64,000 nt of DNA, taken from the NCBI GenBank assembly GCA_050084515.1, contig CM114271.1, positions 8,742,001 to 8,806,000 of the forward strand. The letters run 5' to 3'. Origin of the DNA: Blasia pusilla. Taxonomy: Eukaryota. Positions 21,749 to 57,039 of the stretch are shown in pieces (position 1 is the first letter of the stretch; each line of letters begins with the position of its first letter). Made by a program: the position numbers and the translations under genes. The notes beneath the pieces were generated by a model. The model searched no databases. It was not told the origin of the DNA and saw nothing but the letters and a program-made list of their open reading frames with translations.

Positions 21749-24700
21749 ATGGATAATTATGTGAAACTCACTTGTGGCAGTCATCTAGCGACCCTTCCTC
21801 AATAAAAAATAATTCGACCGCAAGCTCGTGAGTCTTACATACATGTGGATGAAAATTTCCTCTCCAAATTGGAACAATCTTTGTTTCCAAGGATGTTAGG
21901 GTGGACGGTACAAAGGACATTGTAGGTGAGATAGTCCAGCTGATGATAGCAGACTGTAAAGTATGGAATCTCCTACCTCTAAAACATGGTCAGTACAGAG
22001 TTTATGGCCTGCCTTTGAATTCCTCTGTTTCCCAAGTAGAATGTCCGGAATTTCCTAGTGCATCGAGCTCTATGTTTGCCACTCCCAGCTCAGTAGATCC
22101 GACATCGACTCCAACTTCACATGTTAGTAACAATGTTGTACTTCCTGAAGCCATTCCGGATGTCGTCAACTTCAGTGGATCTTTCGGACACCAACCGGGC
22201 CCTATGTGTGCCTACATAGGCCCGGTTCCTCTTGCGAGTATCAGGCAATAGTTTGTTGTTGCCTCTGCCTTTTAAAATGTTCAAGCACATTCTTGTTGAT
22301 GAGTTGCCTGTAATTGCATTTTTGACTTGCCTCCACTTGCTGGTCATGCTCAAAAGAAAGATGGAGGACGCTTGAAGGATATGGACAGAAAGTGTGATTG
22401 TCATCGATGGTGCAGGCTTCAACGGACTAGTGCTTCAATTACACATGGTCCTTGGATTGTTTCTTGCCGCCACTATGTTGGAGCCCTGGAGTGTAGAAGT
22501 CTTGGCTCATCTAGAGCGCAATGGGCGAGTCAATACATCGCAATTCCCCCAAAAGAATGCAATAATCCTTATGAGGTCAGTGCGACCATACCGCGGGGAG
22601 CCCTGCATACATATTTTTCATTGCGCATGACTTCAGTTCTACGTTCGAGTACACAAGGTTGGCAGTTCATGTTGGCTCCCACATTCATCCTGTTACCGGT
22701 GCAATTCATAGACACATCAAGGAGGATGTGGCAAAGAAAGTGGCCAAGGTATATAGAAACTCTCCGGGATCAAAGCCCGAAGTGATCAAGTTAACAACAA
22801 CATCACAAATTTATGAACGACTGCTTGGAATCCCTGGGCAGGGCAAGATCACGGCTGCTGAGGAGAATCAACTCTGGGAAAATCTCGCATTTCTCGCTAA
22901 TCCTGAATGCTTCAAGAATTTGGTGCATCAAATACGGGTACTTGATGGAAAGACGGCCGAAATGGATGCCATTGCCACAATCAAGGCCACCTCCACATTT
23001 CCATTTATTCAAAGATGGCAGTTCATGGGCAAAGGAGGCAAAGGATTCAGGGCTTATGTCTTCAAAATGTCAACTACAGGGCCTTCAAGTGGCCTCGATC
23101 TTATAGATCGAATGAGGGAAGGGGAAGATCTCTACGGCACCTGGGTAAGCTTTGATATTTGCTACAGAGTGCTGAATGGATGGTTGACCATGGGTGCTCA
23201 CCTTTACGACCATGTGGAGAAGGGACTCAAAACTTTATTTGTCGGTGAGGTAAAAGCAAAAGACGTTGGCAGTTTGAAGATGTGTTGGTTACTCTTATTG
23301 GAGGTGGTGAAGGAAAACAAAAGGCCACCTCTGGAAATTTATGGACTCATGGCGGATAATGCACAACCTGGGTGGATTGCTATCAGGGAAGTGTTCTGGG
23401 GTGGAGAGGTTCAACGAGAGAGGGGAGGGGTCGGATGCTTTCCATTGGCAATAGTCTGTGACCCGATACACCAAATCTTGCATCAAGGAGTATAAGAGGA
23501 TAGAGCATCTCACTCTACTCCAATGCTGCAAGGACAACAAAACCTTGAAATAGGCCATGGAGTGCCAAGAAGAACTTCATGGGTGATGGAGGAAGCATGC
23601 GATTGAGGAGAAGTACAAAGAGTTGTGCTCTTGGCTCAGTTGGTAGATTGTACGAATGAGATATTGGGAAAACTTCATGCGGCATGTGAGTTCAGTATTT
23701 TTTCCTTTCGAGCTCATGCTGAGAATTGTTTGAAAAGTTCCAGCCCAAGTTGAGAAGCGTGGGCACTATAGGGATTTCAAACCGCAGAAACCAAGCAACC
23801 CATCGGATGCGACGGATTTCCTGAGTGTGCAACCCGTCGGAAACCGATAGGTTGCATCAAGAATGTTTGTGTTACCTCTTGGAACTCAACTGGTTGCATG
23901 AGTGTCACACCCGTCAGAGCGTGACATGATGCACGAGGAATTTTTGTGCAACCTGTCGGAACCCGATTGGTTGCATGAGTATGCAACCTGTCGAATCCCG
24001 ACGGGTTGCAAGTTGCATGTATACAAGGCCTGTAAATAGTTCCACCATGATGGGTTGCAAGCCGTAAGGCTACGAGTTAACTCGGTCTCCAACCCGTCGG
24101 ATTCCGACAAGTTGCGTTTGTCTGCAACCTGTCGGATTCAAACTAGTTGGGTCTGTATGCAACTCCTCGCATTCTGACAGGTTGCGGCTGTCTCCAAGTC
24201 CTTGCATCCAAACACGCTGCTTCAATGCAAGTTAAGTGGAACCCGTCAAATTCCAATAATTGCAAAGCTTCGTGTGTGGAAAATTCTTGCAAGCCAACAG
24301 AAACTGACAGGTTGCACAAGAATTTTTGAGATCGGACCGGCCTGCTTCTCACAACCCGTCCGATTCGAACCCTTGCAATAGCACGTTCTTGGATGCTAGG
24401 TTGCAGTAAAAGGTTACTGGGACATTCTAGGGATGTCTCCGACTTGCAACCCATTTCAAGTCGGAGGCTGGAAAATCTATGTGCGACCACCCGTCGGATT
24501 TCAATGACTTGCACTTGGATCTTCCAGCCTAGAGTGGCCAAAGATACTTGCAACCCGTCTGAATCCGACGGGTTGCACTAGGTGGTTCCTGGGTGTTGCA
24601 ACACATCGGAAACTGATGGGTCGCAGAGTCATTCATGGGATGCCTCTGACTTGCAACCCGTCTAGTTTCGATAGGTTGCTTTTTTCTTTGCTCATAGAGC

Positions 24701-26239
24701 TATTTTTGTTCCCTTCTCACATTGCCGTCGTTGTAGGGATTGAACATTCATGAAAATTCCCTCTACCCCAACACAAGTGGGGCAAAAAGTGTTCATTCCT
24801 CCTGGAGGTCGTCACAAGCATGCCAAAGAATTTCACTTATGGAGGCATGCCAACAAGACCAGGCAAGAGCAATGCTATAGTGTGCAGCATCCCATATCTT
24901 CCTCACAAAAGGCATACCAAAAGGAAAGGGGCCTTCGATTTACGAGCTCTACGTCAGGGCGGCTGTGACATCTGATGATGAGAAACTCTATGTGGAAGCC
25001 TTCAATTGGTGCGTAGCAAGAACTCCCCTCAAGCAAGATGTCCACATTGGTGGGGATATTTGTGGGCCTGTTTCAAGACGTCCCATACAGATGGTGGTAG
25101 AGCAGTTCGAGCGAGACTCGTGGAGACCAGATAAGTATCTCGACTTCAGGCAAGTGAAGAGGCAACATCGAGGAACGAACCCGGTAATTGATTTGGATGA
25201 AGAAATTATGCCGCCCAGGTATTCGGAGATCCCAAATTGCTCCCAAATCCGAGATGCAGTAACTTCTCTAAAATCAAATAATGTTTTATTTCAAAAGCCC
25301 TCCGTTGTTGGAAGTTCGCAACATCTGGTCTTAGGATAGTTCAACAGTATGGGATTTTGGTCATTGAGGTGGATTGCAACCTCAAAAGGTGGCATATATC
25401 TCGGAGCAACCCTGGACGTGGACCCACTTGCAGGGCAGGATCTGATGGCATTAGGAGAGCATGCGGCACTTTTCTAAATAAGAACTGTACAAGGACTGGA
25501 CTACCACTGCTTGGATTTTGGGGACTCAGAACCATTGATCGTTTAACAAGGACCGGGATCAATTGAAGCACTTCTTCTGCCCAAATGAATCCTCTGCTTT
25601 CCGAAAGTCTTATCCGGCTGCCATTGGAGGTCCAAGGAATATTCCCACGATTTGGCCCATTGCCTCAGGTACAAATTGCACTCAAGACAAAGTGGATAAT
25701 CTTACAAGTGCCGATTGCAGACTCGTAGACGGAGGAAGTTCGGAGCATGTTTGCATTACAAAGACCTTCACATTTCTTATGCAACCCAAGATTGATGTCA
25801 ACATGTACCTGGAGAAGGTGGATGATCTCAATCCACTATTTCTGTTTGAGTCTAGAAATGGGATGAAGAGAAACAGAATGTGTAGGCCAATGGTGGAGAG
25901 AGCAAAGCGAATCACATGAGCTCGGGAGGCAAACATGGAAATCATCGCCACAAAAGACGTCAAGAGTGGCAATGGAATAAGAAGGATGTATTGGGTGAGG
26001 AATAACATTGTAAATTCAAGTGTCAAAGGGGTGTATGTGGTGCACATCCATTGCTTTCCCACATGTTCCTATGATGACTTTGTCCAAAGAGAGACAAGTG
26101 GGAAAAGGTATTTCCCTTCTAAGCACATGTACTATGTGTTGCTTGTAGTTTTAAGAGAGTCGGAGGTAGGAGTAGGAATCCACCAACCAATTTTGTCCCT
26201 CAAAGAAGTGCAAAGTTATTTTTAAACAAACCACTTTGA
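21749..26239 (+). pseudogene. Copy 1 MULE-type transposase with C-terminal SWIM finger, degraded
   Basis: ORF 22659-23495 has WVSFDICYRV and GLMADNAQPGWIAIREVF; decayed SWIM at ~26070-26135. Confidence 0.85.
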
Positions 26240-26647
26240 GGATACAAAATGAGGTCTTAGATTGTACTTTCATTTGCTAGAACCTTCACTTTGAGCTTGA
26301 ACTCTATTCAGCTTAGGGCAAATGAAAGATTTTTTCCAGACCTTGGATGGAAAAAGTGATTTGTTCCACATTTATGATTCCAATGATTTTTCAGTTTTTA
26401 AAATTTTGTGCAAATTGCAACCTGTCGGATTCAGATGGGTTGCCAAAATGTGGAAGAGGAATTTTTTTTTGTGGGAGTGCCTAAGCACTGAGAACAAAAG
26501 TGCAAAAAAAATCACAAAAATTTGTCCTCTCTTCAACCCAACGGAAACTCTCTTCAAATCACACGAAACTCTCTTAAAAAATAAAGTATCTCTTTGGGTT
26601 GAAGGTAGTTTCCTCTCTCCTCTCTTCCTCTCCTCTTACCGCTCCTT

Positions 26648-29399: not shown

Positions 29400-31034
29400 C
29401 TGTTTTGCATAGAAGTTGAAGACCTTGGTGCGCCGGAAGTAGAAGTTGAAATTGAAGGGCATACCATCAAGAAGGTTCCTATAGATTCTGAAAGTGGGAT
29501 CAACATCATGACAGAGCAGACTGCGTAGGCTTTGGGTTACACTAAGTATGAACCCACCGATAAGTATGCACGCTTTGCGGATCAGTCTTGTAAGCGGCCC
29601 TTGGGGCAGCTTACCCCGACACCCACTATGATAGGAGGGATGCTATTTCTACTGGACTATCTTGTCCTTCACCCTTTGACAGTCACTGGTTATCCCTTAC
29701 TCATTGGAAGCCCGTGGCTTTATGGGGCTCAAGTCAATACGGATTGAAAAAGATGAAGATTCATTGTCCAAGCACCATCAAGTACTTCCAAGAAGTTGGT
29801 GAAGTTGCCTTGGAAGTCTTGGCCGCCTCAAGGAGAGACACCTGCCTTGGATGAGGGGTATACCTCGGATCACGACCTCAGAGTTGAGACACAGTCCTCG
29901 TCCTATGTGTGCTATTTGGAGTGCTATGAGATAGATGAAGAATTTCTACAATCAGAACAAAGCCACTCTTGTCCAAGGGAGGACCCATCGAGGCTCACTA
30001 TCTACCAGTTCAGGGAGAAGATGGTGCAGGAGAAGGACTACCAAGAAGTCTTGATCAGCGATACTAAGGCCTTGCGTGTGTCTGCAGACTTGTCTTCATC
30101 TGAACTTTCACTATATAAATCTTTGCTTTCGAAGTACCTTGATGTGTTTTCCTACACCATGGATGAGATGAAAGGAGTACAAGCCAAATATGGGGAGCAT
30201 AGAATTGATCTGAAGATTGGGGAAATCCCTGTGCGAATGCCGCAATATAGATTGAATCCAAAGTATTCCTTAATGGTCAAAGATGATCAGAGGTTGGAAG
30301 CAGGAGTCATTTATCCGGTACTTAGTAGTGAGTGGGTATCTACCATAGTCATTGTTTCGAAGAAGCAATCGGGTAAGATCAGGGTATGTCAAGACTATAG
30401 GAAGCTTAATGCGGCCACCCTGAAGGATCATGACCCCCTGCCCTTTACGGATACTATCTTAGATAAAGTGTTTGGTCATGAAGGCTATACATTCTTGGAG
30501 GGGTATTCCGGTTACAATCAAGTGTCCATAAGAGAAAAGGACCGAGCTGTGACTACCTTCACCACGGATTTGGGAACTTTTGCCTATCAAGTGATGCCTT
30601 TTGGCTTGTGCAATGCCCCGGCCACTTTTCAAAGAATGATGATCTCTTTCCTTCAGGAGTACTTGCAAAGGTTCATAGAAATCTTCCTAGATGACTTTTG
30701 TGTCTTCAGCTCGGCTGCCAATCATTTGCAGAAGCTAGAGCTCACCTTGGCTTGGTGCAGAGAAGTGTAGTTGTCTTTGCACCCAGAGAAGTCTTACATT
30801 GCAATGAAGGAGGGTATCCCTTTGGGGCATCGAGTGTCTTTGCACGGTATCGAAGTGGATAAGGCTAAAGTGGAGATAATTTCAGAGTTGGAAGCTCCCA
30901 CGAATCTTCGTGAGCTAAGAGGATTCTTGGGGCATGTGGGGTACTATCGCCGGTTGATTAAGGATTACGCACTAAAGGCGAAGCCTTTAACTACCCTACT
31001 GAAGAAGACAGAAAAGTGGGAGTGGTTGCCAGCA
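29400..31034 (+). pseudogene. Ty3/gypsy pol, 5' half: protease and reverse transcriptase
   Basis: Protease-like VPIDSESGINIM (~29475-29510); RT motifs RVCQDYRKLN, GYSGYNQV, VMPFGLCNAPATFQRMM, IFLDDF and LRGFLGHVGYYRR; ends at KWEWLPA where copy 2 is inserted. Confidence 0.93.
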
Positions 31035-32878
31035 GGGGGTTGGTATTCTGGCAGGAGAGAGTAAGAGAGGAGAGGAAGAGAGGAAGAGAGGAGAGTCTCT
31101 CTTCAAAAAAAAGGGCCAAATCCGCCTCCTCTCTTCAAAACTTTTTGACATATTTGAAATTTTTGTTTGCTTTCAAATTCATGAAATCTTTAGAAGAGAG
31201 TAGGTAGTGGTCCACATTCGGGCCTAAAAAAATCTCCTGTTTCCTGGGGGCGAAAAAAAAGTAGACATCATAAGACCACTACAAACATTTTTCCATCACT
31301 CTCCATGTGAGCCTAAGTTTCTTATCATTACCTGTCTCGGTCTACAAAAAGCAGTGCCCATGGGTATTTTTGTTGGAGGACCACCCGGATGCCAACCTCT
31401 CTTTTTGCAGGGATTTTTGCCTGCATCGTGGCCTCCCCTGAATTGCCCCATAACCAACTTTCTGTTGGTTATGAATGGTGTCTGCTCAAGACCAACTTTG
31501 TGAAATGTGAACACATGAGAGGATAATTGAACCAAAAAGTTGTTAGCTGTTTGGAGTAAAGAGGAATTGATGTCCCTTCATTCAGATCCTAAGGCTGAGA
31601 AACCGAGAAGCTGCACCCCTCCCAACCCGTAAGAAAGCTCACCATAAGAAAGGAAAGATTTTTAGAAGGAATTTTCTTCCACCCTGCACCCACGACGATC
31701 TAACAGGTTGGGAATCCGAAATGGCAATCCGACAGGTAGTAGGAATCCTGCACATCTTAGACAAGAAAAGAAGCCTACAACTGGTTTGACGAATGTAGGG
31801 GGACGAGCCAAACGTTAAGAAGCCCGCCACAATGCGTCAGAAGTTGGTCTCACAGGGAAAGAGTCCGATCACTCAAGCAGCCAACCTGTCATAATCCGAC
31901 AGCTTGCTTGGTAATGGTTAAAAAGTTGCAGTGGGCAAAAAGCAAAAAGTTGCAACCCGTCGGAATCATACGAGTTGCAAAATTGTAATTCTGAGTAGCT
32001 AAAAGAACACAATCCACAAGTCCAAAAATATATTCCAGCAAACTTTTACAAACACCATTATCGGTTGAAAAAATCTCGTCCTTTATTACCTCCGAAGGAA
32101 CCTCGGAAATGTACATTTGACCTAGTCTATGATTTCTTCAGCCTTGTCATCTACAAATTTACTCCTAACTCTCCTCGGTGACAGTACCAAAGGAATGTCC
32201 TGGGATACAAGTGGCTCCTCCGGCCGATTGTAGACGGGATAAAAATGTTGGCGATTTGAGAGCCTTGGCCCCCCAGTGCACGCCATAACGGTCCCATGTA
32301 ACCTGATTTGAGTCCCACCGCCTTCCTTGGCAAAAGATACCTTGTACGCTCGCAATGTGACACCCATCCAAAGTATCAATATGTGCTCCGTCCTTGGTAA
32401 TACCATTATGGCAATCGCAGGTAGTAGGAATCCAACACGTGAGAGAAGAAAAGAAGCCTCGCCGCCTTTACCGATTGAGGGGAAGGTGCCAAGGAAGAAG
32501 CTGGCTGTGATCGCCTCTTAAGTTGGACCAACAGGGAAAGAGTCCGATCAGGCAATCTATCGGAATCCAACAGGTTGCCTGGAAGTGGTAAAAAGGTGTT
32601 GTCGTCAAAAAGTGAAAAGTTGCAAGCAGGAGAAATCTGACGGGTTGCAAAATAGAAGTCCGCAGAGTACATAGACGATCACATTCGAAAAGACATAAAA
32701 AATGTTCAGCAAACTTTTACAAGCACCACCATCGTTTGAAAAAATCTTCTCCTTTATATCATCCGAAAAAAGCTCGGAACTGTACATTTGATCTATTCTA
32801 TGAAATCTTTTGCCTCATCATCAAAAAATTCCCTACTCCAAACGCTGCAGTCAAGTTGGGTCGTTGAGTTCTTTGAAC

Positions 32879-35800
32879 TCACTCGTCATCGTCCGAGAGC
32901 TCTTGCAAAATTACTTTCGGCCTTTCCCTCCCAATTTTCAGAATCGTTGGAAGTGACGATGGAGTCACTACCAATGGTGGGTTTGGAACCGGAGCTCTTG
33001 GCTTCGGTGGAGAGTTGTACGCCCCAACGAGCCCTTCAGATACGCGCTTTGCCGCTTGCAAGGTCAACAGTTCTGCCTTCCCTTGAGGCAGAGAATGTTC
33101 TGCCACTCGCCAGCGCCTTTGATAGTTGCCCTGAAAGTCCCACTAAGTCGAACACCAAGTCACCCGGCCTTGAGCAGAGCTCGATGAGCGTTGCATGTGG
33201 TGGCGATTTTTCCTTCCTCCCGTAAGGGGTACTGTCTTTCTTGCATGTAAATTCCGGGGGAATTGTACAAACTATCTAAGCTGTACCCATCTGAGCATGG
33301 ATCCAGAGGATCTTGGATCTTGAACACCTGGAAATTGTGCTCGGGCCGAACAAAGTAGTACACGTAGGAGTGGTCCATATGTAAAGAAGCACGTTGGAAA
33401 CAATGTCAGCAACTTGGCATAATGTGCAACACGTCACCAAAGAAGTCGGCTAGACCCTAGAGAACTTTTTCAATTAATAACTTTGGATAACCATCGGGTT
33501 GTTTTGTCCCTGACCAACCCGTCGCCTTTCCGACGGGTTAGTCAGGGACAAAACAACCCGTCGGGCTCTCCGTTGTTTTTGTCCGTGAGCAAACCGTCGG
33601 AAGGCGACGGGTTGCTGGCTTAGAGCAGTTCATGCTTGGCTGAGAGCAACCCGTCGCTTTCCGACGGGTTGCAGCTTTCCGGAAACACAGGGAAAAACCA
33701 AAAGCAACTGCAACCCGTCTGGTTCCGACGGGTTGTAGATACACCACGGTTTTCCCTATCTAAGCCAGCAACCCGTCGCCTTCCGACGGGTTGCTCACGG
33801 ACAAGGACAACGGAGATATACTATCGGAAATTAACACTCATTGAGCCTTACCCAAATTTGAAAATATATTTGATATTATACTGCAGGAATAGAGCCTTAC
33901 CCGAATCTGACTCGTCGCGGATCGGAGTGGGTACTCGTTTTTTATGATCCACGATTGCGCCGTCCTCCACTTTAGCGACCTATTGACGCACTGGAGGTTG
34001 AAGAGCTCGTCCTCGCTCCCTCCAGTCAACACCAAGAAGCAGCCCCTGTCACTCAGATAGGCGTCTGCAAAGGAGAACAATAGCACGATTTGGTCATAAG
34101 AGAGTGGCACATTCCACTCAGGTACCCCGTCCGACGGATTCTCGCCCCACAATCGCAACCCCGAGGATAGATCAGCGATCAAGAGATCCACCGCAACCTC
34201 TTCGACCACTCCATTCACCGTCCAGGCAGCATGCCCGTTTCGTTGGAGCTTCCGTCCCAGCGTTGTCAATTTATCGATGGCTGGTGTCAACGCTTGAGGA
34301 CTGAAGCTTTTCAGCTCATCCAGTTAAGGAGTAAACTGAAGGAAGACACTTGTCCGGGTCGTTGTTTGTATGTGTCTTCCCAATGATGATGGACTGTATT
34401 CTCCTTGTGACAACCCTGGCACCTCTCGCTTCCGCTTCTCCCGAGTCTGCGGATGGCTTGTCGGTGTCTCTATGACCTCAAACTCTGGTGGGGTTTTTTT
34501 CGCCGAGGACTTGGTCCGACCCTCTCTCCCCGCTCGCCCGGACGATTCCGCCTCTGGCCTTGAATCTTCACCCTCTCTTTGGGAAGACTCGGCCTCGGAA
34601 TTTTTCCCTCCCCTCGCCTTGCCTTTGAGACTCGTTGTGGATTTGTCTTTGGCTGTACGGACCTTGGAATCCAACTCAGCTGTCTCGTGGGCTTGCTCTT
34701 CCGCATCTCCTCCGAAGAAGTCTTCAGGCTGCACAAAATTGGGGATGTCGTCTTGTCCTGAGGCCACTGCATCATGAAGCACTCGTAAATCCTTATCACT
34801 GATGTCTTCAGGGTCGTTGAAGTCAAGCCAAATGGGGCAATTCTCCACCTCCCAATCGGACATGTGCTGCCCCATCTCCATGTCGTACATGGAGAATGTG
34901 TCTCCATCAGGCGGCGAAGCCCACAATTTCAAGGCTGCCGGTAATTTTCCCCAGGTACTTGCATTCTTACACTGGACGAGGTACGTGAAGACCATCCGTT
35001 GGGCAGCTTTTACTCAAACTGAATCGGCCGTCTGCCCGTGTAGATCTCGCTTCTTCTTTGCTTGATCCCGTTTGTTCCCCTCGATTTCTTCGTCAAGCTC
35101 TGCTTGAGGGAGGACGCAAACCTTGAACATTGTCTTGAATCCTGGGTTTTTGATTGGCTTGTCCCGGATGTCGTCGAGCCAAACCTCGAAATCTACAGAA
35201 CTTTCCAGGTTTGCTTCATCCGAAATGGGCTCTAATCTTTTGAGCTCGCTGCATCGCCCAAAGACCGACTTCCCGATAACCCGCAACGCGTCCCAGAATG
35301 ACCATTCGCGTAGCCAGTGGGAGATCACTGGATCGGACACACCTAGAGGATGGTGTGGCCCCCTCTTCTAGGCCTACGTGCCCTCGAGATTGATTTTCAT
35401 CAATCAGATCCTCCTAAACTCGCTTATGCGGGACAACGCAAACCGATGCACACGATCCAGGGACACTTTCTCCCCAATCCGACCTTGCGGATCTTCATCC
35501 CTTTTCCGCTGGCGCTTGATAATCGCCTTCAGCTCCTTGTAAAACTCCGGACCAAGTTCGGGGTTGAGAATGTTGATGTTTCGCTGCATCTTGCTCGCCG
35601 TGTATTTCGTGGCTGCAGATACTGCAACTTGGATGAATTTTGTGCGCTCAGACCCAGATACTTTCTCCCTCCACTCCAGCTCTAGCTCCAGTGCAGCGCT
35701 CTTCTTCGCGGCCTGTATCTTCGACCAGAAAAGGACGGTTACGGCTACATCTTGGGAAATAAACTTATTTGCCCAAGTTTTCTTTTTTATCTGAGCACCC

Positions 35801-37898
35801 TTTGCAAGCATCTGATTTACGGGCGTCACCAAGAACCCTTGTACTCTCCCGGTGCATCGTAAGCACCTTCTTCACCCGATCGCGATCCTGGATCCGGTGG
35901 TGGGTGACATTCCCCTCCGATACAATCCGCACATCCAAACTCAACCCGCCGAGAAAATTTGTAAGTTACATGGGTTCTGAACCCGTCGGACTCGACGGGT
36001 CGTCACAACTCAAGGTCGGATTCTAGAACGAAGCTAAATGATGCAACCCATCGAGTCCGACGGGTTGCATTCAGATTTGCTAATGCTGGTTTCAACCGTC
36101 GGACTCCGACGGGTTGTGCAATTGAACATACTAACGTGAACATAGCAACCCGCCGGAGTCCGACAAAGTTGCGCAATTGAATGGAAACTTGCAATTTGAC
36201 GTGAAATTTGCTAAACCAACTTCCGAATGCAACCCGCGTCGGACTCTCGGCGAGTTGATTTCGCCAAAAATAGTTCGAAGTCAAGCAACCCGTCGGACTC
36301 GACGGGTTGCTTTGGGCAAAACATACTAAACCGGTCGGTCGAACAACTCGCGGAGTCCGACGAGTTGCTTTCTTCAAAAAAATCCTGAAAAGGCGGCGAG
36401 TCGAGCAACCCGTCGGACTCCGACGGGTTGCTTTGGGCCAAAAACTTATTAAACATGTGGTCAGTCGAACAACTCGTCGGAGTCCAACAAGTTGCATTGT
36501 TCAAAAAACGTCATGAAAAAGCGTCGAGTCGAGCAACTCGTCGGAGTCCGACGAGTTGCTTTCGGCAAAAAAAGACCTAACCCATTCATCAATCGAGCAA
36601 CTTGTCGGAGTCCGACGAGTTGCGTTTGGCCAAAAGCATCCCAACAATAGTGCCGACCCAAACAACTTGTCGAAGTCCGATGGTTTGCAGCAAGAAGATA
36701 CTCACGTATTCATGGCATGCATTGCCATCTCCACCGTCGCCATGTGATGAGGGAATGGATGAAGGACCACTACCTTCACGAAAAAATGTGCCTCCAAGGA
36801 GTTGGGCCGCTCCTCTGCAAACTTGGTCCACGCCATGAACCTGTGATTTCCATCCCAGATGAAGAAATACAGATTCCTCATCCAGCTGAATTCCGTGCCC
36901 TCTACTTGCCTTCTGAAATCCTGGTCTCTCATCCTCCAGAATGTGTCGAGCTTATCCAAGTCCTCCTCCGTAACCAAGGCTTGGGTTCCATGCTCGTCGT
37001 AAGGCTGAACATAGAAGGGAGGAAAGTTGTTGACATAGGATGCTGTGGCCGCCGATTGTTTAAGCTTCGCGATGTCCTCGTCGGACTGAATTTTGCAGAT
37101 GTATTCCATTGTCCGCAATCGGTAGAGTGGAATCCTCGGGGCATTGTGGCCCTCCATGAATGCCATCTGCTTTACCACCTGTCAGAACCGGGACAAGATC
37201 AATAAGCTACACTGAATTCCCAATGAATTGCAATTCACATAATTCAAAAAACCTAGATCCTCTCTTACCCGCTCAAAAATTGGGTCGGTTTCTTGACCAG
37301 CCAACTTGTCTGAGACAGAAGCTGGAAAATCGATTGGGAACTCGTCGATCCGATAGAGGTCGATGTCTTCCGCCGGGCTTGGAGACGAGAATGACCGCTC
37401 TCCGGCTTCTTTGGCAATGTCCACCATCTCCACGCTGGCGGTCCTCATGACCTCGTCGTCCGTGATTTGAACTTCTGGCGTTTCTGCTATGTTGATTGTG
37501 TCCCCGGACTTCATCGGGGACATTTACCGCATCTCAACACTTTTGGTTGGACGGGCAGGGCTGTCGTTAATGGCTATCGCTTTATCCCTCCTCGCTTTAG
37601 CCAATTCTGCTCTCCTCAGCGACGCGTCCAGACGCTTCTTTTCTCTCTTTTCGTCGGCGATTCTTTTCTTCAAGGCCTGCGATGTCTCAGCCTCTGCGTT
37701 CTGTCTATCGAGCGCCTCTTGAACACGTCTCGCAAGAAGCTCCTGGTTGTGCATCTCCGCTTCCCTTTCCCGCTCCTCGATTTCCTGCTGCCTAATTTCA
37801 TTTGCCGAACGAGGCCCTGGAGATGCAGACGCATGAGTCATAATGGACTTCGGAGTGAAGCTCCCAGACTTGTTTGCTTGTGATTTTTTCCTCGTCAT
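32879..37898 (-). pseudogene. Copy 2 of a four-exon gene: coiled coil, ParB/Srx-like domain, unknown middle region, beta-class N6/N4 DNA methyltransferase-like domain
   Basis: Inferred exons 37898-37269, 37178-36706, ~35927-33901 and 33378-32879; donors GTAAGA, GTGAGT and GTAAGG with phases that join; motifs FFIWDGNHRFMAW, VDLLIADLSSG, LSDRGCFLV, SWIIKN and LCSRPGDLVFDLVGLSG; several stops and frameshifts. Confidence 0.78.
35980..36690. repeat. Intronic array of ~27-29-bp palindromes with roughly 60-65-bp spacing
   Basis: Perfect example AGCAACCCGTCGGA-C-TCCGACGGGTTGCT at 36404-36432; about ten variants in this intron; homologous arrays at ~18350-19240 and ~47100-47990. Confidence 0.95.
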
Positions 37899-38626
37899 TT
37901 TTTCCCGAAATGCCTCCACCTATGTCCACGATGAATCGCTTGATCAGTCGCCTTGCTGATGTCGAGACGAGTCACCTTGATGGGTAGCTCGAATCGTCTC
38001 GCGATCGTTCAGTCGAACCGTCTCGCTCTCGTTCGGTCAAACCGTCTTGCTCTCGTTCCCTCGTATCGATTCGTGATGACTCGCCGTGTGAAATGCCCCT
38101 TGGTATCTGATCAGCAGCTGCGCGGGAGAGAGAGCAATGGAGATCGCAAAATGAGAAACCGGAAATGAGCAATTTCTGCCCTATTTATACTTTTCTAGCC
38201 GTTGGGCTGACCGTTGGGTCCCGTCGTCCTTTTGACGGCGACGTGCCGGAGGTTACGGAAGTCTAGACGTGAAAAAATGGCAACCCGTCTGAGTCCAACA
38301 GGTTGCGCGCCTCCGCCGTCCTTGGTACGTTGCCACGTGCGCGAGCAACCCGTCGGAGACCGACGGGTTTCAACAAAATGAAGTGTGCTTCGCAACCCAC
38401 GTCTCTGCTTCCCAAATCCGGTAACACATTGCAACAGAATTGAATGTGTTGCAACAGAATTGGATCCATTGTGTAAGATAATGTCACCTACCGAATTCAT
38501 CTTGTCAGTAAAAATCTGTCAGGAGTATCTATTTTCCTATTCACTATGAATTAAAAATTCTCATTCTCATTCTCATTCTCATTCTTTTTCTCATTCTCAC
38601 CCTCCTCCCGTACGAAATTTCTGGGA
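37899..38626. promoter_or_regulatory. Divergent intergenic/promoter region of the element
   Basis: Lies between the two head-to-head genes; TATA-like GTATAAATAG on the minus strand at 38181-38190 (also in copy 3 at ~49462-49471); palindromes; (ATTCTC)n tract upstream of the transposase ATG. Confidence 0.5.
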
Positions 38627-41600
38627 ATGGATAATTATGTTAAGCTCACTTGTGGCAGTCATCTGGCGGCCCTTCCTCAATCAGAAATCATTCGACCCCA
38701 AGCTCGTGAGTCTTTCATAGCAGTGGATGAATTTTCTCTCTGTTCGATTTCTTCTCCAAATTGGAACCATCTTTGTATCCAAAGATGTTAGGGTGGACGG
38801 TACGGAAGACATAATAGGTGAGACGGTCCAGCCAGTGACCTCAGACCGTAAAGTATGGAATCTCCTACCTCTAGCAAATGGTCAATACAGAGTTTACGGC
38901 CTGCCCCTGAATTTTTTGTTTCCCAAGTAGACGGTCTAGAATTTCCTAGTGCTCCGAGCTCTACGTTTGCAACTCCAAGCTCTGCAGATCCGGCTTCGAC
39001 TCCAACTTCACATGCTCGTATCAATGTTGTTCTTCCTGAAGAGATTCCGGATGTTATCAATCTCAGTGGATCTGTCGGACACCAACCGAGCCCTCTGTCC
39101 GCCTACTCGTTCCTTTTGCGAGTATCAGGCAATAGTTTGCTTTCGTCTCTGGCCTTGAAAATGTTCAAGCACATTCTTGTCGACGAGCTTCCGCCCACGT
39201 ATGATGGTAATTGCATTTTTGAGTTGCCTCCACTTGCTGCTCCTGCTCAAAAGAAAGATGGAGGACGCCTGAAGGGTATGGACAGAAAGTCTGATTGTCA
39301 TCGATGGTGCAGGCTTCAAGGGACTAGTGCTTCAATTCCACATGGTCCTTGGATTGTCTCTCGCCGCCAATGCGTCGGAGCCTTGGAGTGTAGAAGTCGA
39401 GCATGCCCGTATCTAGAGCGCAACGGGCGAGTCAATACGTCGCAATTCCCCCCCAAGAATGGAGAAACTCCATACGAGGTTGGTGCCACCATACCGCTGG
39501 GAGGCCATCGATGTCCTCATTGTCAGGCATCGCCCTTCTACGTTGGAGCGTGTCCTGCATACATATTTTTCATTGTCCACGACTTGGGCTCCACGTCAGA
39601 GTACACAAGGCTGGAAGTTCATGTTGGCTCCCACACTCATCTTGTGACCAATGCAATTCAAAGACACACCAAGGAGGATGTGGCGAAGAAAGTTTCCGAG
39701 GTCTACAGAAACTCTCCGGGTTCAAAGCCCGAAGTGATCAAGCTCACAAAGGCATCACAAATTTGTGAACAATTGCTTGGAATCCCTCGACAGGGCGAGA
39801 TGACGGCGGCTGAGAAGAAAAAACTCTGGGAAAATCTCGCATTTCTTGCTAATCCTGAATGCTTCTGGAATTTGTTGCGTCAAATACGAGTTCTGGATGG
39901 AAAGACGGCCGAAATGGATGCCATCGCCAGAATCAAGGCCAACTCCAGATTTCCATTCATTCAAAGATGGCAGTTCATGGGCCAAGGAGGTGAGGGATCC
40001 AAGGCCTATGTCTTCAAAATATCAACCATAGGTCTGTCGAGTGGCCTCGATCTTATAGATCGAATGAGGGAAGGGGAAGATCTTTACGGCAGCTGGGTAA
40101 GCTTTGATATTTGCTACAGAGTGCTGAACGGATGGTTGACGATGGGTGCTCACGTTTATGACCATGTGGAGAAGGGACTCAAAACTATATTTGTCTGTGA
40201 AGTAAAGGCAGAAGACGTTGGCAGTTTGAAGATGTGCTGGTTACTCTTATTGGAGGTGGTGAAGGAAAACAAAAGACCACCTCCGGAAATTTATGGGTTC
40301 ATGGCAGACAATGCACAACCTAGGTGGATTGCTATCCGGGAAGTGTTCTTGGGTGGAGAGGTTCAACCGGAGAGGGAAAGGTCGGATGCTTTCCATTGGC
40401 AACAGTCTGTGACCCGGTACACCAAATCTTGCATCAAGGAGAATAAGAGGACAGAGCATGTCACTCTACTCCAACGCTGCAAGGACAGAAAAACCTTGAA
40501 GTAGGCCATGGAATGCCAGGAAGAACTTCATGGGTGGTGGAGGAAGCATGCGATTGAAGGGAAGTACAAAGAGTTGTGCTCTTGGTTGAGTTGGTGGACT
40601 GTACGTATGAGACAATGGGGAAACTTCATGCGTCCGGTGAGTTCACTATTTTGTCTTGTCAAGCTCACGCTGAGAATTTTTTGTAAAGTTGTAGCTCAGG
40701 GTGAGAAGCGTGGGAACTATAGGGATTTCAAACCAAAGAAACCAAGCAAGCTGTCGGATGCGACGGGTTGCCCGAGTGTGCAACCCGACGGAAACCGACG
40801 GGTTGCATCCAGATGTTTGGTGCAACCCGAGTGTGCAACCCGTCGGGACCCGACGGGTGACGGAGTCGTTCATGGGATGCCTCGGCCTTGCAACCCGTCT
40901 GGTTCCGACGGGTTGCAGTAGGTGGGTTTAAGGTTACAACATGTCGGGACCCGACGGGTCATGGAGTCGTTCATGGGATGCCTCGAGCCTGCAACCCGTC
41001 TGGTTCCGACAGGTAGCTTATTTCTTTGACTCCTGAGTTATTTTTGTTCCCTTCTAACATTGCCGTCGTTGCAGGGATTGAACGTTCATGAAAATGCCCT
41101 CTGCCCCAACACAAGTGGAGCAGAAAGTGTTCATTCCTCCTGGAAGTCGTCACAAGCATGCCAAGGAATTTCACTTGTGGAGGCATGCCAACAAGACCAG
41201 GCAAGAGCAATGCTACAGTCTGCAGCATCCCATATCTTCCTCACAAAAGGCATAACAAAAGGAAAGGGGCCGTCAATCTACGAGCTCTATGTCACGGTGG
41301 CTATGAGATCTGGTGATGAAAAAATGTATATGGAAGCCTTCAACCGGTGCGTAGCTGGAACTCCCCTCGAGCAAGACGTACACATTGGTGGGGATATTTG
41401 TGGGCGGGTTTCAAGACGTCCCATACAGATGGTGGTAGAGCAGTCCGAGCGAGACTCGTGGAGGCCAGATAAGTATCTTGACTTCAGGCAGGTGAAGAGG
41501 CAGCATCGAGGAACGAATCCGGTGATTGATTTGGATGAGGAAATTACGCCGCCCAGGTATTCGGGGACCCCGGACCCGCCCCAGATCCGTGATTGAGTTA

Positions 41601-42406
41601 CTTCTCCAAAATCAGTGAATGTTTTATTTCAAAAGCCCTCCGTTGCTGGAAGTTTGCAACATCCTGTCATTGGGGTGGTTCAACAATATGGGATTCCGGT
41701 AATGGAGGTGGATTGCAACCTAAAACGGTGGCATATATCTCGGAGCAACCCAGGACGTGGACCCACCTGCAGGGCAGGATCTGATGGCATTAGGAGAGCA
41801 TGCGGCACTTTCCTAAATTTGGCCCATCGCCGCAGGTACGAACTGCACTCAAGACGAAGTGGACAATCTTACAAGTGCCGGTTTCAGACTCGTCGACGAG
41901 GGAAGTTTGGAGCATGTTCGTATTAGAGAGACCTTCGCATTTCGTATTCAACCCAAGATTGATGTCAACATGTACCCGGAGAAGGTGGATGATCTCAATC
42001 CATTATTTCTGTTTGAGTCTAGAAATGGGGTGAAGAGAAACAGAATGTGTAGGCCAACAGTGGAGAGAGCAAAGCGAATTGCATCAGCTCGGGAGGCAAA
42101 AATGGAGATCATCGCCATGAAAGATTTCTTGAGTGGCAATGGAATAGGAAGGATGTATTGGTTCAGGAACAACACTGTAAATTCAAGTGTCACAGGGGTG
42201 TATGTGGTGCACATCTGTTGCTTTCCCACATGTTCATGTGATGACTTTGTCCAAAGAGAGACAAGTGGCAAAAGGTATTTCCCTTGTAAGCACATGTAGT
42301 ATGTGTTGCTGGTAGTTTTAAGAGAGTCGGAGGTAGGAGTATAGGAATCCACCAACCAATTCTGTCCCTCAAAGAAGTGCGAAGTATTTTAAACAAACCA
42401 CTTTGA
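38627..42406 (+). pseudogene. Copy 2 MULE-type transposase (Cys/His Zn-binding N-terminal region, DDE core, C-terminal SWIM), with one intron at 40637-41074
   Basis: CVGALECRSRACPY...CPHC...C...HVGSHTH; WVSFDICY (D1); FMADNAQP.WIAIREVF...AFHWQQ (D2 and H); after the phase-0 GT..AG intron, PNTSGAESVHSSWK (E); SWIM CSCDDF...PCKHM; stops and a ~170-bp deletion at ~41817. Confidence 0.9.
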
Positions 42407-44034
42407 GGATGCAAAATGAGGTTTTAGATTGTACTTTTATTTTTCCTGAACCTTCACTTTGAGCTTGAACTCTATTCAGCCCGGGGCAAATGATAGATTT
42501 TTTCCAGACCTTGGATGGAAAAAGTGATTGGTTCCACACTTATGATTCCACTGATTTTTCAGTTTTCTAAATTTTGTGCAATTTGCAACTGGTCGGACTC
42601 AGAGGGGTTGCCAAAATATGGAAGAGGAAAAAAAAATTGTGGGACTGCTTAATATATGAACAAAAAAGTGCAAAAAAATTCAAACAAAAAGTTTCCTCTC
42701 TTCAACCCAACGGAAACTCTCTTAAAAAAAAAGTATCGATTTCGGTTGAGGTAGTTTCCTCTGGGGGCTGGTATTCTGGTAGGAGAGAGTAAGAGAGGAG
42801 AGTCTCTCTTCAAAAAAAAGGGCCAAATCCGCCTCCTCTCTTCAAAACTTTTTGACATATTTGAAATTTTTGTTTGCTTTCAAATTCAGGAAATCTTTAG
42901 AAAAGAGTAGGTAGTGGTCCACATTTGGCCCTAAAAAAACCTCCTCTTTCCTGGGGGCGAGAAAAAAGGAGACATCATAAGACCACCCTAAACATTTTTC
43001 CATCACTGTCCATGTGAGCCTAAGTTTCTTAACATTCCTCAGATCGGTCAACAAAAGCAATGCCCTAGGTATTTTTGTTGGAGGACCACCCGGATGGGTA
43101 CCTCTCTTTTTGCAGGGATTGTTGCCTGCATCATGGCCTCCCCTAAATTGCTCCATAACCAACTTTCTGTCGGTTATGAATGGTGTCTGCTCAAGACCAA
43201 ATTTCTGAAATGTGAAAAAATCAGATCCTAAGGCTCAGAAACCGAGAAGCTGCACCCCTCCCAACCCATAAGAAAGCTCACCATAAGAAACGAAAGATTT
43301 TTAGAAGTGATTTTCTTCCACCCTGCACCCACGATGATCTAACGGGTTGGGAATCCAAAATGGCAATCCGACAGGTAGTAGGAATCTTGCACATCTTAGA
43401 CAAGAAAAGAAGCCTACAACTGGTTGGACAAATGAAGGGGAACGAGCCAAAAGTCAAGAAGCCCGCCACAATGCCTCAGAAGTTGGTCTCACCGGGATAG
43501 AGTCCGATCACTCAAGTAGTCAACCTGTCGGAATCCGAGAGGTTGCCTGGGAATCCAACACGTCTGAGAGAAGAAAAGAAACCTACGCCTGCCTTTACAA
43601 GTTGAGGGGAAGGTGCCAAGGGAAGAAGCCCGCCAGACTGCCTGATCCAAAAGGGTCCGATCAGGCAACCTGTCGAAATCAGACAGGTTTCCTGGAGGTG
43701 GTAAAAAGGGTCCAGTGGTCAAAAAGCGAAAAGTTGCAAGGAGGAGAAATCCGACGGGTTGCAGTGGTCATAAAGTGAAAATTGCAAGCAGGAGAAATCC
43801 GACGGGTTGCAAAGTAGAAGACCGTGGAGTACATAGACGATCACATTCGAAAAGAAAAAATGATCAGCAAACATTTACAATCACCACCATCGATCGAAAA
43901 AATCTTCTGCTTTATATCATCCGAAAAAAGCTCGGAATCAGACATTTGATCTATTCTATGAAATCTTTTGCCAAATTATCAAAAACTCCCTACTCCAAAC
44001 GCTGCAGTCAAGCTGGTCGTTGAGTTCTTTGAAC

Positions 44035-47000
44035 TCACTCGTCATCGTCCGAGAGCTCTTGCAAAATCACTTTCGGCCTTGCCCTCCCGATTTTGGGAAT
44101 CGTTGGAAGTGACGATGTAGTCACTACCAAGGGTGGCTCTGGAACCATAGCTCTCGGCTTCGGTGGAGAGTTGTACGCCCCAACGAGCCTTTCAGATTCG
44201 CCTTTGCCTCCTTGCAAAGGTCAAGCGATTCTCGCCTTCCTCGAGGCGTAGAATGTTCTCGCCACTCGCCAGCGCCTCGATACTCGCCCCTGAAAGGCCC
44301 ACTAAGTCGAACACCAAGTCACCCGGCCTTGAGCAGAGCTCGATGAGCGTTGCATCGTGGTGGCGACTTTTCCTTCATCCCGAAGGGGTCTTGTCTTGCA
44401 TGTAAATTCCGGGGAAATTGTACAAACTATCTAAGTGTACCCATCGAGCATGGATCCACAGGATCATGGATCTTGAACACGGAAATTGTGCTCGGGCGAA
44501 CGAAGCAAAGACACGAGGAGTGGTCCATCGAAAATCAAGCACGAAACAATGTCAAAAACTAAAGAAGTCGCTTGAGAAGATTTTCAATAATCGACTTTGG
44601 ATCAACTTGTCTTGAGTCCGACGGGTTGTTTTGTCCGGACCAACCGCCGGAACCCGGACGGGTTTGCGGTTGCTTTTGGGTTTTCCAAGTTGATTTTGGT
44701 TTTGGATGCAACCCGTCGGAAGGCGACGGGTTGTCGCCTAGACCAGCCCATGCTCTTTGAGAGCAACCCGTCGCTATTAGACGGGTTGCATCCAAAAACC
44801 AAAATCAACTGCAACCCGTCGGGTTCCGACGGGTTGCAGGTACACCGCGGTTTTCCCTGTGTATGTGGGAAAGATGCAACCCGTCGGAAACCGACGGGTT
44901 GCTCTCAGCCGAGCATGGGCTGCTCTAAGCCAGCAACCCGTCGCCTTCCGACGGGTTGCTCACGGACAAAAAAAACCCAGATTGACTCATTCTACACATC
45001 ATTATAAGATAATTGAAATTATTGTACAGGAATTGAGCCTTACCCGAATCTGACTCGTCGCGGATCGGAGTGGGTACTCATTTTTTATGATCCACGATTG
45101 TGCCGTCCTCCACTTTAGCGACCTCTTGATGCACTGGAGGTTGAAGAGCTCGCCCTCGCTCCCTCCGATCCAACACCAAGAAGCGACCCTGTCACTCGGA
45201 TAGGCGTCGCAAAAGGAGAACAAAAGTGCACCTGGTCATAAGTGAGCGGCGATTCCACTCGGTACCTCGTCCCTCGGATTTTCGCCCAAAGTCGCAACCC
45301 GAGGGCAGATCGGCGATCAAGAGATCCACCGCAACCTCTTCCACCACTCCATTCACCGTCCGGCAGCGTGCGTTTCGTTGAGCTTCCGCCCCAGCGTTGT
45401 CAAATTTTCGGCGGCGTTGTCGACGCTTGAGAATCAAGTCGTTTAGCTCATCCAGTAAAGAGGTGAACTGAAGGAGGACGCTTGTCCGGGTCGTTGTTTG
45501 TCAGTGTCTTCCCAAGGATGATGGGTTGTATTCTCCTTGGGACAACCCCGGCACCTCTCGGTTCCGCTTCTCCCTAGTCTGGGGACGGCTTGTCGGGGTT
45601 TCTATGACCTCGGATTCTGGTGGCGTTTTCTTCACCGAGGACCTGGTCCGACCCTCTCTTCCTGCTGGGACGATTCCGCCTCTGGCCTCTCATCTTCAGG
45701 CTCTCTTTGGGAAGTCTCGGCCTCTGAATTTTTCCCTCCCCTCGCCTTGCCTTTGAGACCTGCTGTGGATTTGTCTTTGGCTGTCCGGACCTTGGAAGCC
45801 AACTCAGCTGTGTCGTGGGCTTGCTCTTCTGCATCTCCTCCGAAGAAGTCTTCAGGTTGGACGAAATTGGGGATGTCGTCTTGTCCTGAGGCCACTGCAT
45901 CATGAAGCACTCGTAAGTCCTTATCCGTGATGTCTTCAGGGTCGTTGAAGTCGAGCCAAATGGGGCAATTCTCCACCTCCCAATCTGACATGTGCTGACC
46001 CATCTCCACGTGGTACATGGAGAATGTCTCTGCATCCGGCGGCGAAGCCCACAATTTCAAGGCTGCCGGTAATTTTCCCCACGTACCTGTGTTCTTACAC
46101 TCAACGAGGTACCTGAATACCATCCGTTGGGTAGCTTTTAGTCGAACATTATCGGCCGTCTACTCATGTAGATCTCGCTTCTTCTTCGCTTGATCCCGTT
46201 TGTTACCCTCTACTTCTTCGTCAAGCTCTGCCTGAGGGAGGACGCAAACCTTGAACATGGTCTTGAATCCAGGGTTCTTGGTTGGCTTGTCCCGGATGTC
46301 GTCGAGCCAAACCTCGTAGTCTCCAGAACTTTCAAGGTTTGCTTCCGGCGGAATGGGCTATAATCTTCTGAGCTCCATTTGCGCACCGCCCAAAGATGGA
46401 CTTCCCGATTACCAACGCGCCCCGTAACGACCATTCGCGTAGCCAATGCGCAAGATCATCGGATCGGACACACCCGGAGGATGGTGTGTCGCCCTCTTCG
46501 GGCCTCGAGCCCTCGAGATCGATTTTCATCGTCGTATCCTCCTGAACTCGCTAATCCCGGATAACGCAAAACGATGCACGCGATCCGACACTTTCTCCCC
46601 AATCCGAGCATGCGGATCTTCATCCCTCTTCCGCCGACGCTTGATAATCGCCTTTGAGCTCCTTGTAGAACTCCGGACCAAGTTCGGGGTTGAGAATCTT
46701 GATGTATCGCTGCATCTTGCTCGCCGTGTATTTCGTTGCGGGAGATACAACAACTTGGATGAATTTGGCGCCGCCTGACGCAGATACCTTCTCCCTCCGC
46801 TCGGCTCAGCCCCAGCGGCGCTTTTCTTCGGCTTTGTATCTTCGACCAGCAAAGGATGGTTACGGCTGCATCTTGAGAAATAAACTTGTTTGCCCAAGTT
46901 TTCTTCTTAATCTGAGCACCCTTTGCAAGCATCTGATTGACAAGGGCATCGCCCAAGAACCCCCTGTACTCTCCCGGGTGCGTCGTAAGCACCTTCCTCA

Positions 47001-56907: not shown

Positions 56908-57039
56908 CATGCTCTCGGGGCGTTCGCAAGCTGGCCTTGGGATTATGTGCTTCATAAGTGGCTCCCATGTGTGTTAGATACTTTTGGGACTCTAGTTAGG
57001 TGAGTAGAAGGAGCTAGAACAACAATCTGCAATTTAAAT

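Follow-up and report, generated by a model that had tools for sequence, protein, structure and literature searches.

A methyltransferase-like domain with altered catalytic motifs in an accessory gene of a putative Mutator-like transposon from Blasia pusilla

Known transposon cargo and the Blasia locus

Accessory genes that combine ParB-like and methylase parts have been reported in transposons of brown, red and green algae, and their products were recently proposed to bind and epigenetically mark the elements that carry them (PMC12477816; 10.1101/2025.02.11.637652). In Ectocarpus, the 21.5 kb element Sola1-1_Ec32 is described as encoding a 1104-residue protein with ParB-like and N4-cytosine/N6-adenine (N4C/N6A) methylase parts opposite its transposase (Dinatale et al. 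2025, PMC12477816). For red algae, the genes PAG2 (PF01555 and SET) and PAG3 (ParB-like and 2OG oxygenase), adjacent to inverted-repeat arrays, are described on Plavaka, Zisupton, Mutator and Fanzor elements, and according to the same source no transposon protein other than the VANDAL anti-silencing protein is known to bind its own element and modify it (Petroll et al. 2025, 10.1101/2025.02.11.637652). The bdelloid rotifer enzyme N4CMT is presented as a single-copy host gene with an SPPY motif, a chromodomain and proven N4-methylcytosine (4mC) activity, and is stated there to have no eukaryotic homologs (PMC8885841). The present analysis concerns 64,000 nucleotides of DNA from Blasia pusilla (assembly GCA_050084515.1, contig CM114271.1, positions 8,742,001 to 8,806,000 of the forward strand; this whole stretch is called the window), in which three copies of a transposon carry a gene whose 3' part, at 33060-34200, had initially been annotated as a beta-class N6-adenine/N4-cytosine DNA methyltransferase-like domain with altered catalytic motifs.

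This region is probably the 3' part of an accessory gene of a Mutator-like transposon, encoding a methyltransferase-derived domain that most likely no longer catalyses methyl transfer. The gene belongs to the transposon and not to the host, a point missed in the initial annotation; it was found in all three copies (listed below), between the inverted repeats and on the minus strand, opposite a plus-strand transposase gene. The accessory protein would be encoded by several exons and consist of a charged N-terminus, a probable ParB-like block, a conserved middle part and a C-terminal domain, the last apparently derived from a bacterial-type, permuted (beta-class) N6-adenine/N4-cytosine DNA methyltransferase and split by a phase-0 intron, while a SWIM-finger DDE transposase would be encoded divergently, on the opposite strand of the same element of about 11.9 kb. 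The domain has kept the fold-defining motif order, the Asp of motif IV, the Asp and S-G of motif I and the Glu of motif II, and has lost the aromatic residue of motif IV, the His of motif X and the first Gly of FxGxG. Judged from these motifs, methyl transfer would have been lost and the domain would act as a module that binds or reads DNA and may still bind S-adenosylmethionine; together with the ParB-like block it may recognise the element's own DNA, with arrays of a 23-bp palindrome in introns and spacers of the element as candidate sites, and it could thereby aid transposition or counter host silencing.

about 14692 to 26646: element copy 1, with terminal inverted repeat arms at 14692-14731 and 26611-26646
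about 31035 to 42775: element copy 2, from self-comparison
about 42776 to 54779: element copy 3, from self-comparison
31035 to 54779: 23.7 kb insert within a gypsy pol gene, formed by copies 2 and 3 head to tail

Compared by description only, the element resembles Ectocarpus Sola1 (PMC12477816) in that both are giant cut-and-paste DNA transposons with a large multi-domain gene opposite the transposase, with a permuted amino-methyltransferase domain of bacterial type on the C-terminal side and a ParB-like block (here probable) upstream, and with a proposed role in binding or modifying the element's own DNA. It differs in being Mutator-like (9-bp duplication, SWIM finger) and not Sola1, in having a domain that lies beyond Pfam and lacks the catalytic aromatic residue, and in that its ParB block is statistically unsupported. 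PF01555-type cargo, inverted-repeat arrays adjoining a ParB-like gene, and mostly degenerate copies with low transcript levels are shared with PAG2 and PAG3 as these are described (10.1101/2025.02.11.637652); in contrast to them, a single gene here appears to unite a ParB-like part with a methyltransferase-like one, Pfam searches revealed neither a SET nor a 2OG domain, and Pfam recognises the PAG2 domain but not the present one. The rotifer enzyme, as published (PMC8885841), likewise has a permuted bacterial-type N6_N4 domain with introns in a eukaryote and is linked to transposons, whereas the Blasia domain has a degenerate motif and travels as cargo of a transposon. The algal transposon accessory genes are closer precedents than the rotifer enzyme. 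A 4mC enzyme is also known from Marchantia. What is new relative to known cargo is a methyltransferase domain beyond curated models that has lost the catalytic aromatic residue and is still strongly selected; a degenerate methyltransferase form of such cargo was not found described in the literature, the supplementary tables of the algal papers lying outside this search. VANDAL, whose Mutator-superfamily accessory protein acts on its own chromatin, is used as a working analogy only, and no sequence relationship to it is claimed. Counts of such cargo in eukaryotic genomes are probably too low, as the domain escapes curated models.

The methyltransferase-like domain and its intron

The initial annotation had listed VDLLIADLPS, LSDRGCFLV, SWIIKN, an intron and a C-terminal block, in this order. 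Every string was located on the minus strand of the three decayed element copies and in the same order, which confirms the motif observation. The coding parts before and after the intron are called the N-block and the C-block, and their open reading frames (ORFs), exons and introns are as follows.

33838-34323, minus strand: copy 2 N-block ORF, VAVDLLIADLSSG...VPEWN...LSDRGCFLVLT...SWIIKNEYPL
33901 to 34323, minus strand: copy 2 N-block exon, motif IV DLSS at 34173-34162, 3' limit set by the GTAAG donor
33379 to 33900 (read 33900 to 33379), minus strand: copy 2 intron, 522 nucleotides, phase 0, with five palindromic units at 33516-33792
32881 to 33378, minus strand: copy 2 last exon, C-block motifs X, I and II, ...LIELCSRPGDLVFDLVGLSG...
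16281 to 16565, minus strand: part of the copy 1 N-block exon, DLPS at 16553 (followed by R), donor at 16280
16280 to 15645, minus strand: copy 1 intron, 636 nucleotides
15315 to 15644, minus strand: copy 1 C-block exon, the best preserved, REKSYALMQTLMELCSRPGDLVFDLVGLSGASIRGAWHSGMNILCLE, preceded by a CAG acceptor
44195 to 45330, minus strand: copy 3 methyltransferase-like region, DLPS at 45311 (followed by G), an intron and several frameshifts
45043 to 44529, minus strand: copy 3 intron, 515 nucleotides
44195-44374, minus strand: copy 3 C-block ORF, within the methyltransferase-like region

The copy 2 N-block exon continues the frame of the upstream ORF (34324-35013) through a single TAA, and its last exon has a tail reading ...ELSDDDE before a TGA (32881-32879), with small deletions that disrupt the frame. 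In copy 1, a frameshift separates motif IV from NAPLSYDK; the ORF at 15312-15671 contains ...REKSYALMQTLMELCSRPGDLVFDLVGLSGASIRGAWHSGMNILCLE, and the stretch 15312-15644, from which the C-block had originally been read, equals the second exon up to a premature stop at 15312-15314. Past this stop the protein tail is conserved, with a TGA at 15119, 32881 and 44037 in copies 1, 2 and 3, respectively. DLVGLSG was found in all three copies (first base at 15395, 33149 and 44308).

The claim that the gene bears an intron holds: a phase-0 intron lies between the N-block and the C-block, its GTAAG donor is present in all three copies, and the exons join in frame. In the DNA alignment of the three copies, well-conserved exons flank a poorly alignable stretch, and the matches to two relatives from a protein search (P0001 and P0002) end close to the donor site, at most a few residues away. 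One genomic and three RNA sequencing runs from the same species were mapped on 32800-42800 at 88% likeness; in the intron bin 33468-33801, RNA depth was 0 in all three RNA runs and DNA depth was 351 (166+185). Loose read ends at 32870, 33129 and 33192 were considered as signs of splicing and rejected, being subfamily differences (copy-1-like sequence).

Homology to beta-class (permuted) N6A/N4C DNA methyltransferases was established by comparison with a profile of 13 genuine beta-class enzymes, namely E. coli YhdJ and 12 phage methylases. The N-block, as an alignment of seq­uences numbering seven (the window copies and the relatives P0001, P0002, P0003, P0005 and P0006), was matched by hhalign to columns 10-132 of this profile (P=1.8e-6, probability 79%, or 90% in a re-run without an extra option), and the copy 1 C-block alone to columns 207-253 (P=3.1e-5, probability 73%), in the permuted order of the profile, with the motif IV region first and motifs X, I and II after it. 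Neither observed score was matched by any of 150 shuffles (column shuffles for the N-block, best 23.5 vs 44.5; residue shuffles for the C-block, best 22.3 vs 36.0). When the family alignment was compared with YhdJ alone, the register was the same (P=0.0041; YhdJ residues 32-112 and 198-243), and BLASTP of the C-block against E. coli YhdJ gave 46 ungapped residues from motif X to motif II (E=5e-4). The sole PDB sequence match of the C-block was M.RsrI (E=0.12; 177,635 searched), its only PHROG matches were three 'DNA methyltransferase' families (E=0.0031, 0.0083 and 0.24; 38,880 families), and a hidden Markov model (HMM) of the 13 enzymes ranked the three C-block ORFs first among 1,402 window ORFs of at least 30 residues (E 0.021-0.082, all at profile positions 203-241). 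PF01555 clusters are among the language-model neighbours of the N-block (0.86-0.88), which serves as a lead only. The original assignment to the beta-class amino-methyltransferases is thus borne out by two blocks collinear on the profile. Word-index protein searches were empty for the N-block against longer proteins and for the C-block at near lengths, and when the 13 enzymes were compared one by one by hhalign, none stood out as the nearest relative, so that no bacterial or phage donor clade can be named for the putative horizontal origin put forward in the initial annotation.

With the beta-class enzymes (YhdJ, M.RsrI 1EG2, CcrM 6PBD, M.PvuII 1BOO and 12 from phages) the domain shares the motif order IV...X, I, II, the Asp-x-Pro of motif IV followed by W(N/D), a hydrophobic strand after D/K-x-G, a W-x-x-x-N stretch, and K-x-x-A-L...PGDLV-x-D...S-G...E with spacing identical to YhdJ. 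Unlike them, it is without the motif IV aromatic residue, has Gly for the His of motif X and VGLSG for FxGxG, has a spliceosomal-type intron within it, forms part of a fusion with about 900 residues of other sequence and is carried by a eukaryotic transposon.

It is extremely unlikely that the likeness to methyltransferases arose by chance, from short strings selected by eye among the six-frame translations of repetitive DNA, given that two independent collinear blocks point to the same family with the P values above and no shuffle reaches either score, that PDB, PHROGs and Pfam return only DNA methyltransferases for the C-block, and that the blocks are retained in relatives and subject to selection. 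Such a reading could draw on two results, namely that no curated model reached its threshold and that the best structural match in VIA-align had a Z below 8 and may reflect only a common arrangement.

A class I (Rossmann-like) methyltransferase fold is probable, the structural evidence being softer than that from sequence. The strand-helix order of the AlphaFold model of the N-block is that of beta4-alphaD-beta5-alphaE-beta6-beta7, and Foldseek with this low-confidence model placed CcrM (E=1.2e-3) and M.PvuII (6.6e-3) first among 350,542 chains, with METTL14 and M1.HpyAVI also at or near the top. METTL14 is a catalytically dead methyltransferase paralog and offers an analogy for a fold kept as a nucleic-acid-binding scaffold; no sequence relationship is claimed. 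In VIA-align (48,161 chains) the best match was Trm14 (Z 7.5, root-mean-square deviation 2.6, 78 aligned). Methyltransferase titles made up 19 of the 50 matches listed, among which were many small alpha/beta proteins (TusA, Alba) and no beta-class DNA methylase. Folded as two chains, the N- and C-halves scored 0.47 against 0.01 for the best control, which lends weak support (contact agreement between runs at least 64%, partner confidence, as predicted local distance difference test (pLDDT), at least 41). Of 78 solved complexes 51 passed the mark applied, as did 2 of 108 mismatched pairs, and passes at or below 0.60 comprised only 5 of the 78 solved complexes and all 4 passing mismatches (of 180); the pass may reflect likeness to solved methyltransferases.

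Altered motifs, selection and catalysis

At motif IV the 13 enzymes read DPPY (6), SPPY (4) or DLPY (3), with Tyr in all 13, whereas the six family sequences read DLSS, DLPK, DLPT, DVPE, DIPN and DLSS, none of them with an aromatic residue, and so depart from the canonical (D/S/N)-P-P-(Y/F/W); DLPS of copies 1 and 3 was read from the DNA and stands outside this set of six. DLPY belongs to three phage methylases (L006, L007 and L009), in which GTT...KWD follows. Since these are genuine enzymes, Leu is a natural variant and by itself no sign of degeneracy, and it is the loss of the aromatic residue that constitutes a real change; DLPS in place of DPPY, which the initial annotation had taken as an alteration, is one at its last position but not at its Leu. 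At motif X, the His of all 13 enzymes is Gly in the family (GREKSYAL), with the Lys kept, and motif I reads FDLVGLSG, retaining Asp and S-G but without the Phe and with the first Gly displaced, so that both differ from the canonical H-P-x-x-K-P and D-x-F-x-G-S-G, respectively. The Glu of IGxE, found in all 13 enzymes, is retained (LCLE of copy 1 aligns at identical spacing with IGIE in YhdJ).

A search of 1.84 billion representatives returned 7 matches at E up to 0.001, two of them at E=2.3e-14 and 3.2e-14, and relatives at 31-34% identity share the non-aromatic motif IV. The published algal accessory proteins did not appear among these matches, which are listed without names. Between copies 1 and 2, the ratio of nonsynonymous to synonymous substitution rates (dN/dS) was 0.085 over 132 gap-free codons, with 46 synonymous and 22 nonsynonymous differences (proportions of synonymous and nonsynonymous differences, pS and pN, 0.52 and 0.072; dS about 0.9), and the three domain segments taken singly gave 0.077, 0.121 and 0.034. 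Substitution patterns thus indicate that the lineages of copies 1 and 2 diverged under strong constraint with the degenerate motifs already present. As purifying selection is strong, the altered motifs are seen as a selected family trait and not as decay; DLPS/DLSS and DLVGLSG had been proposed as family traits from the three copies, and both the distant relatives and the selection agree with this.

Decay pure and simple, with the window copies as dead remains of a once canonical captured methylase that now has no function and had none recently, would be compatible with the stops and frameshifts found in all three of them and with the acceptor AG lost in two. It is nevertheless highly improbable, as the non-aromatic motif IV recurs in those relatives from elsewhere, as the low dN/dS was obtained between lineages at a dS of about 0.9, as family members are transcribed with the gene in sense orientation, and as bases missing from copy 2, which is frameshifted there, are present as extra bases at 33099, 33108, 33112 and 33128 in most genomic reads.

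Transcription was observed at the level of the family. In the DNA run, 65,321 reads mapped on 32800-42800 (mean depth about 893 over 10 kb; the run comprised 1,966 million letters), so that the element family makes up about 0.45% of the sampled genomic DNA, and such cargo is also carried by an abundant Mutator-like element of a repeat-rich genome. The three RNA runs gave 247, 361 and 237 reads; nearly all were less than 99% alike to the mapped copy, and the transcripts therefore came from other family members. In bin 32800-33133, first mates stood at 8.66, 7.36 and 4.9 on the plus strand vs 0.03, 0 and 0.18 on the minus strand in the three runs, and in bin 40482-40815 at 1.06, 0.24 and 0.76 on plus vs 7.43, 14.2 and 4.08 on minus; the strand-specific RNA orientation is opposite over the accessory and transposase genes, and the accessory gene is transcribed in sense orientation.

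A domain that is still an active DNA (or RNA) amino-methyltransferase with an unorthodox loop, through which the transposon marks its own DNA with N6-methyladenine (6mA) or 4mC, is unlikely, though well above decay or chance in probability. The low dN/dS and the retained Asp and Pro of motif IV, Asp and S-G of motif I and Glu of motif II would suit an active enzyme; DLPY is tolerated in genuine enzymes (3 of 13), GSG is replaced by GSF in YhdJ, and published transposon accessory proteins of the same architecture are predicted to be active (PMC12477816). Position 4 of motif IV, however, is aromatic in all 13 enzymes and in none of the six family members, and in the rotifer enzyme the change of SPPY to APPA, with Ala for both S and Y, abolished 4mC addition (PMC8885841); the replacement of the motif X His by Gly and the displaced first Gly of FxGxG point the same way. 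We infer loss of catalysis from these sequence changes. The fold would have been kept, at a dN/dS of 0.085, despite loss of the residue that stacks on the target base, which points to binding over catalysis. The earlier suggestion of altered chemistry or a dead DNA reader fits the motif losses and the selection.

Several results weigh against a non-catalytic, methyltransferase-derived domain in a single spliced accessory gene. Pfam N6_N4_Mtase (PF01555), searched on separate exons and not on the spliced protein, scored below its gathering cut-off (12.5 vs 26.7 bits, E=0.14) and on the C-block only, so that the HMM check proposed in the initial annotation did not succeed; the N-block had no Pfam, PHROG or NCBIfam match, and its profile against PDB sequences found no methyltransferase, only a designed repeat protein (E=0.88). 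Built from the seven sequences, the N-block model from AlphaFold had a poor mean pLDDT of 53.8, which makes the fold evidence soft. An acceptor AG is present in one of the three copies (CAG before ATGGACCAC in copy 1, CAT in copy 2, TCG in copy 3), and no splice-junction read was among the 15 best-supported joints listed, all of which came from the DNA run. Besides the stops and frameshifts of the window copies, only 3 of the 845 RNA reads were at least 99% alike. The joining of ParB-like and methyltransferase-like exons in one transcript is a presumption; for the ParB-like block, no Pfam, PHROG, NCBIfam or PDB match was found, and hhalign against two E. coli ParB_N proteins gave the expected register without significance (P=0.09 and 0.22). 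The residues retained in motifs IV, I and II and the strong selection, which is equally expected for an active enzyme, count against loss of catalysis in particular.

It is doubtful that in a clade of eukaryotic transposon proteins a bacterial or phage ParB-methylase has turned into a selected, non-catalytic 'self-DNA reader' docking on the palindromes, or else methylates through an aromatic-free loop. If true, the former would be a pseudo-enzyme counterpart of VANDAL-type anti-silencing, in silencing protection or in assembly of a transposition complex, and the latter would be new chemistry for amino-methyltransferases.

Upstream parts, palindromes and the carrying element

On the preferred reading, that of a transposon accessory gene ending in a probably non-catalytic methyltransferase-derived domain, the remaining parts of the gene and element in copy 2 are the following.

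34324 to 35871, minus strand: middle exons, with WLREWSFW, NCPIWLDF and acidic/basic low-complexity sequence, homologous to the N-terminal part of the relative P0002
36705 to 37181, minus strand: tentative ParB-like exon, RIPLYRL...DEDIAKLKQSA...FFIWDGNHRFMAW
33516-33792, 35980-36557, 38347-38369 and 40782-40914: palindrome arrays, at the same places in copies 1 and 3
38852 to 42299, plus strand: multi-exon transposase gene, DDE-like blocks by eye, SWIM finger in the last exon

The upstream ParB-like DNA-binding block is a tentative assignment. By eye, the exon resembles the ParB N-terminal domain (DGNHR block and upstream pattern), and its language-model neighbours (0.92-0.96) include a cluster with ParB_N in 11% of its members, and DUF6551. 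The AlphaFold model of the block (pLDDT 40.4) was too poor for a structure search, and tblastn against phages gave one chance match (E=9).

A 23-bp palindrome, AACCCGTCGG-N3-CCGACGGGTT, occurs in 48 units (at most one mismatch per arm), 47 of them inside the three element copies and a single one outside, at 63733-63755. All units lie outside the ORF blocks called exons. Groups of them stand in the intron of the methyltransferase-like domain (five, spaced about 60 bp), in the one following the ParB-like exon, in the central spacer and in introns of the transposase gene. The element is full of candidate binding sites, as reported for red algal elements (10.1101/2025.02.11.637652), and protein and palindrome form a concrete pair for a binding test. 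Many joints of the 'opposite strands' type were seen at the palindrome arrays in the genomic reads. At 36364-36392 in copy 2, the RNA of all three runs showed seven changes together (among them G>A at 36364 and A>C at 36377) that few or no genomic reads had at 88% likeness; this RNA probably comes from a diverged subfamily or from an unrelated locus sharing the palindrome region.

The repeat unit is about 11.9 kb long, and its three copies account for 56% of the window. Copies 2 and 3 are 84-95% alike, and copy 1 is 72-89% alike to both. The termini are imperfect purine-rich inverted repeats of 30-40 bp, and a 9-bp target-site duplication (31026-31034 and 54780-54788, 7 of 9 identical) borders the 23.7 kb insert, with the gypsy pol frame continuous across the empty site. 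A SWIM zinc finger was found in the copy 3 exon at 53533-54327 (E=0.0046, 16.9 bits vs a cut-off of 19.6), and the DDE and C/DxxH blocks of the transposase gene were recognised by eye only. Taken together, the 9-bp duplication, the inverted repeats and the SWIM finger point to a Mutator-like cut-and-paste element, an assignment drawn from one insertion, copy 1 having no clear target duplication. No Pfam family was found for the 550-residue transposase ORF or five other pieces, no homolog of the ORF in a near-length protein search, and no match by tblastn against plasmids. The right end of copy 2 is cut short where the left end of copy 3 starts, near 42775, and the arrangement of the two could have arisen either through duplication in tandem once the element had inserted or through a later insertion into the terminus of the first copy. 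An LTR-like (long terminal repeat) reading of the tandem copies was rejected, given the inverted repeats, the 9-bp duplication and the lack of a reverse transcriptase inside the unit.

A left subterminal region of about 1 kb is present in copies 2 and 3 (31100-32070 and 42800-43760) and has no counterpart in copy 1. The left terminal segment occurs a third time, as a solo copy (81-87% alike), at 62917-63230, with a related stretch at 59512-60207. The window as a whole is repeat-rich eukaryotic DNA. Part of the gypsy integrase (56336-56769) recurs at 57037-57471 at 95% likeness, and a tandem array with a 32-bp period and about ten overlapping copies follows directly after the integrase (57403-57926). 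Unrelated to the methyltransferase-like gene are Copia-type gag-integrase ORFs of 494 and 372 residues at 1-2564 on the minus strand, which run off the start of the window.

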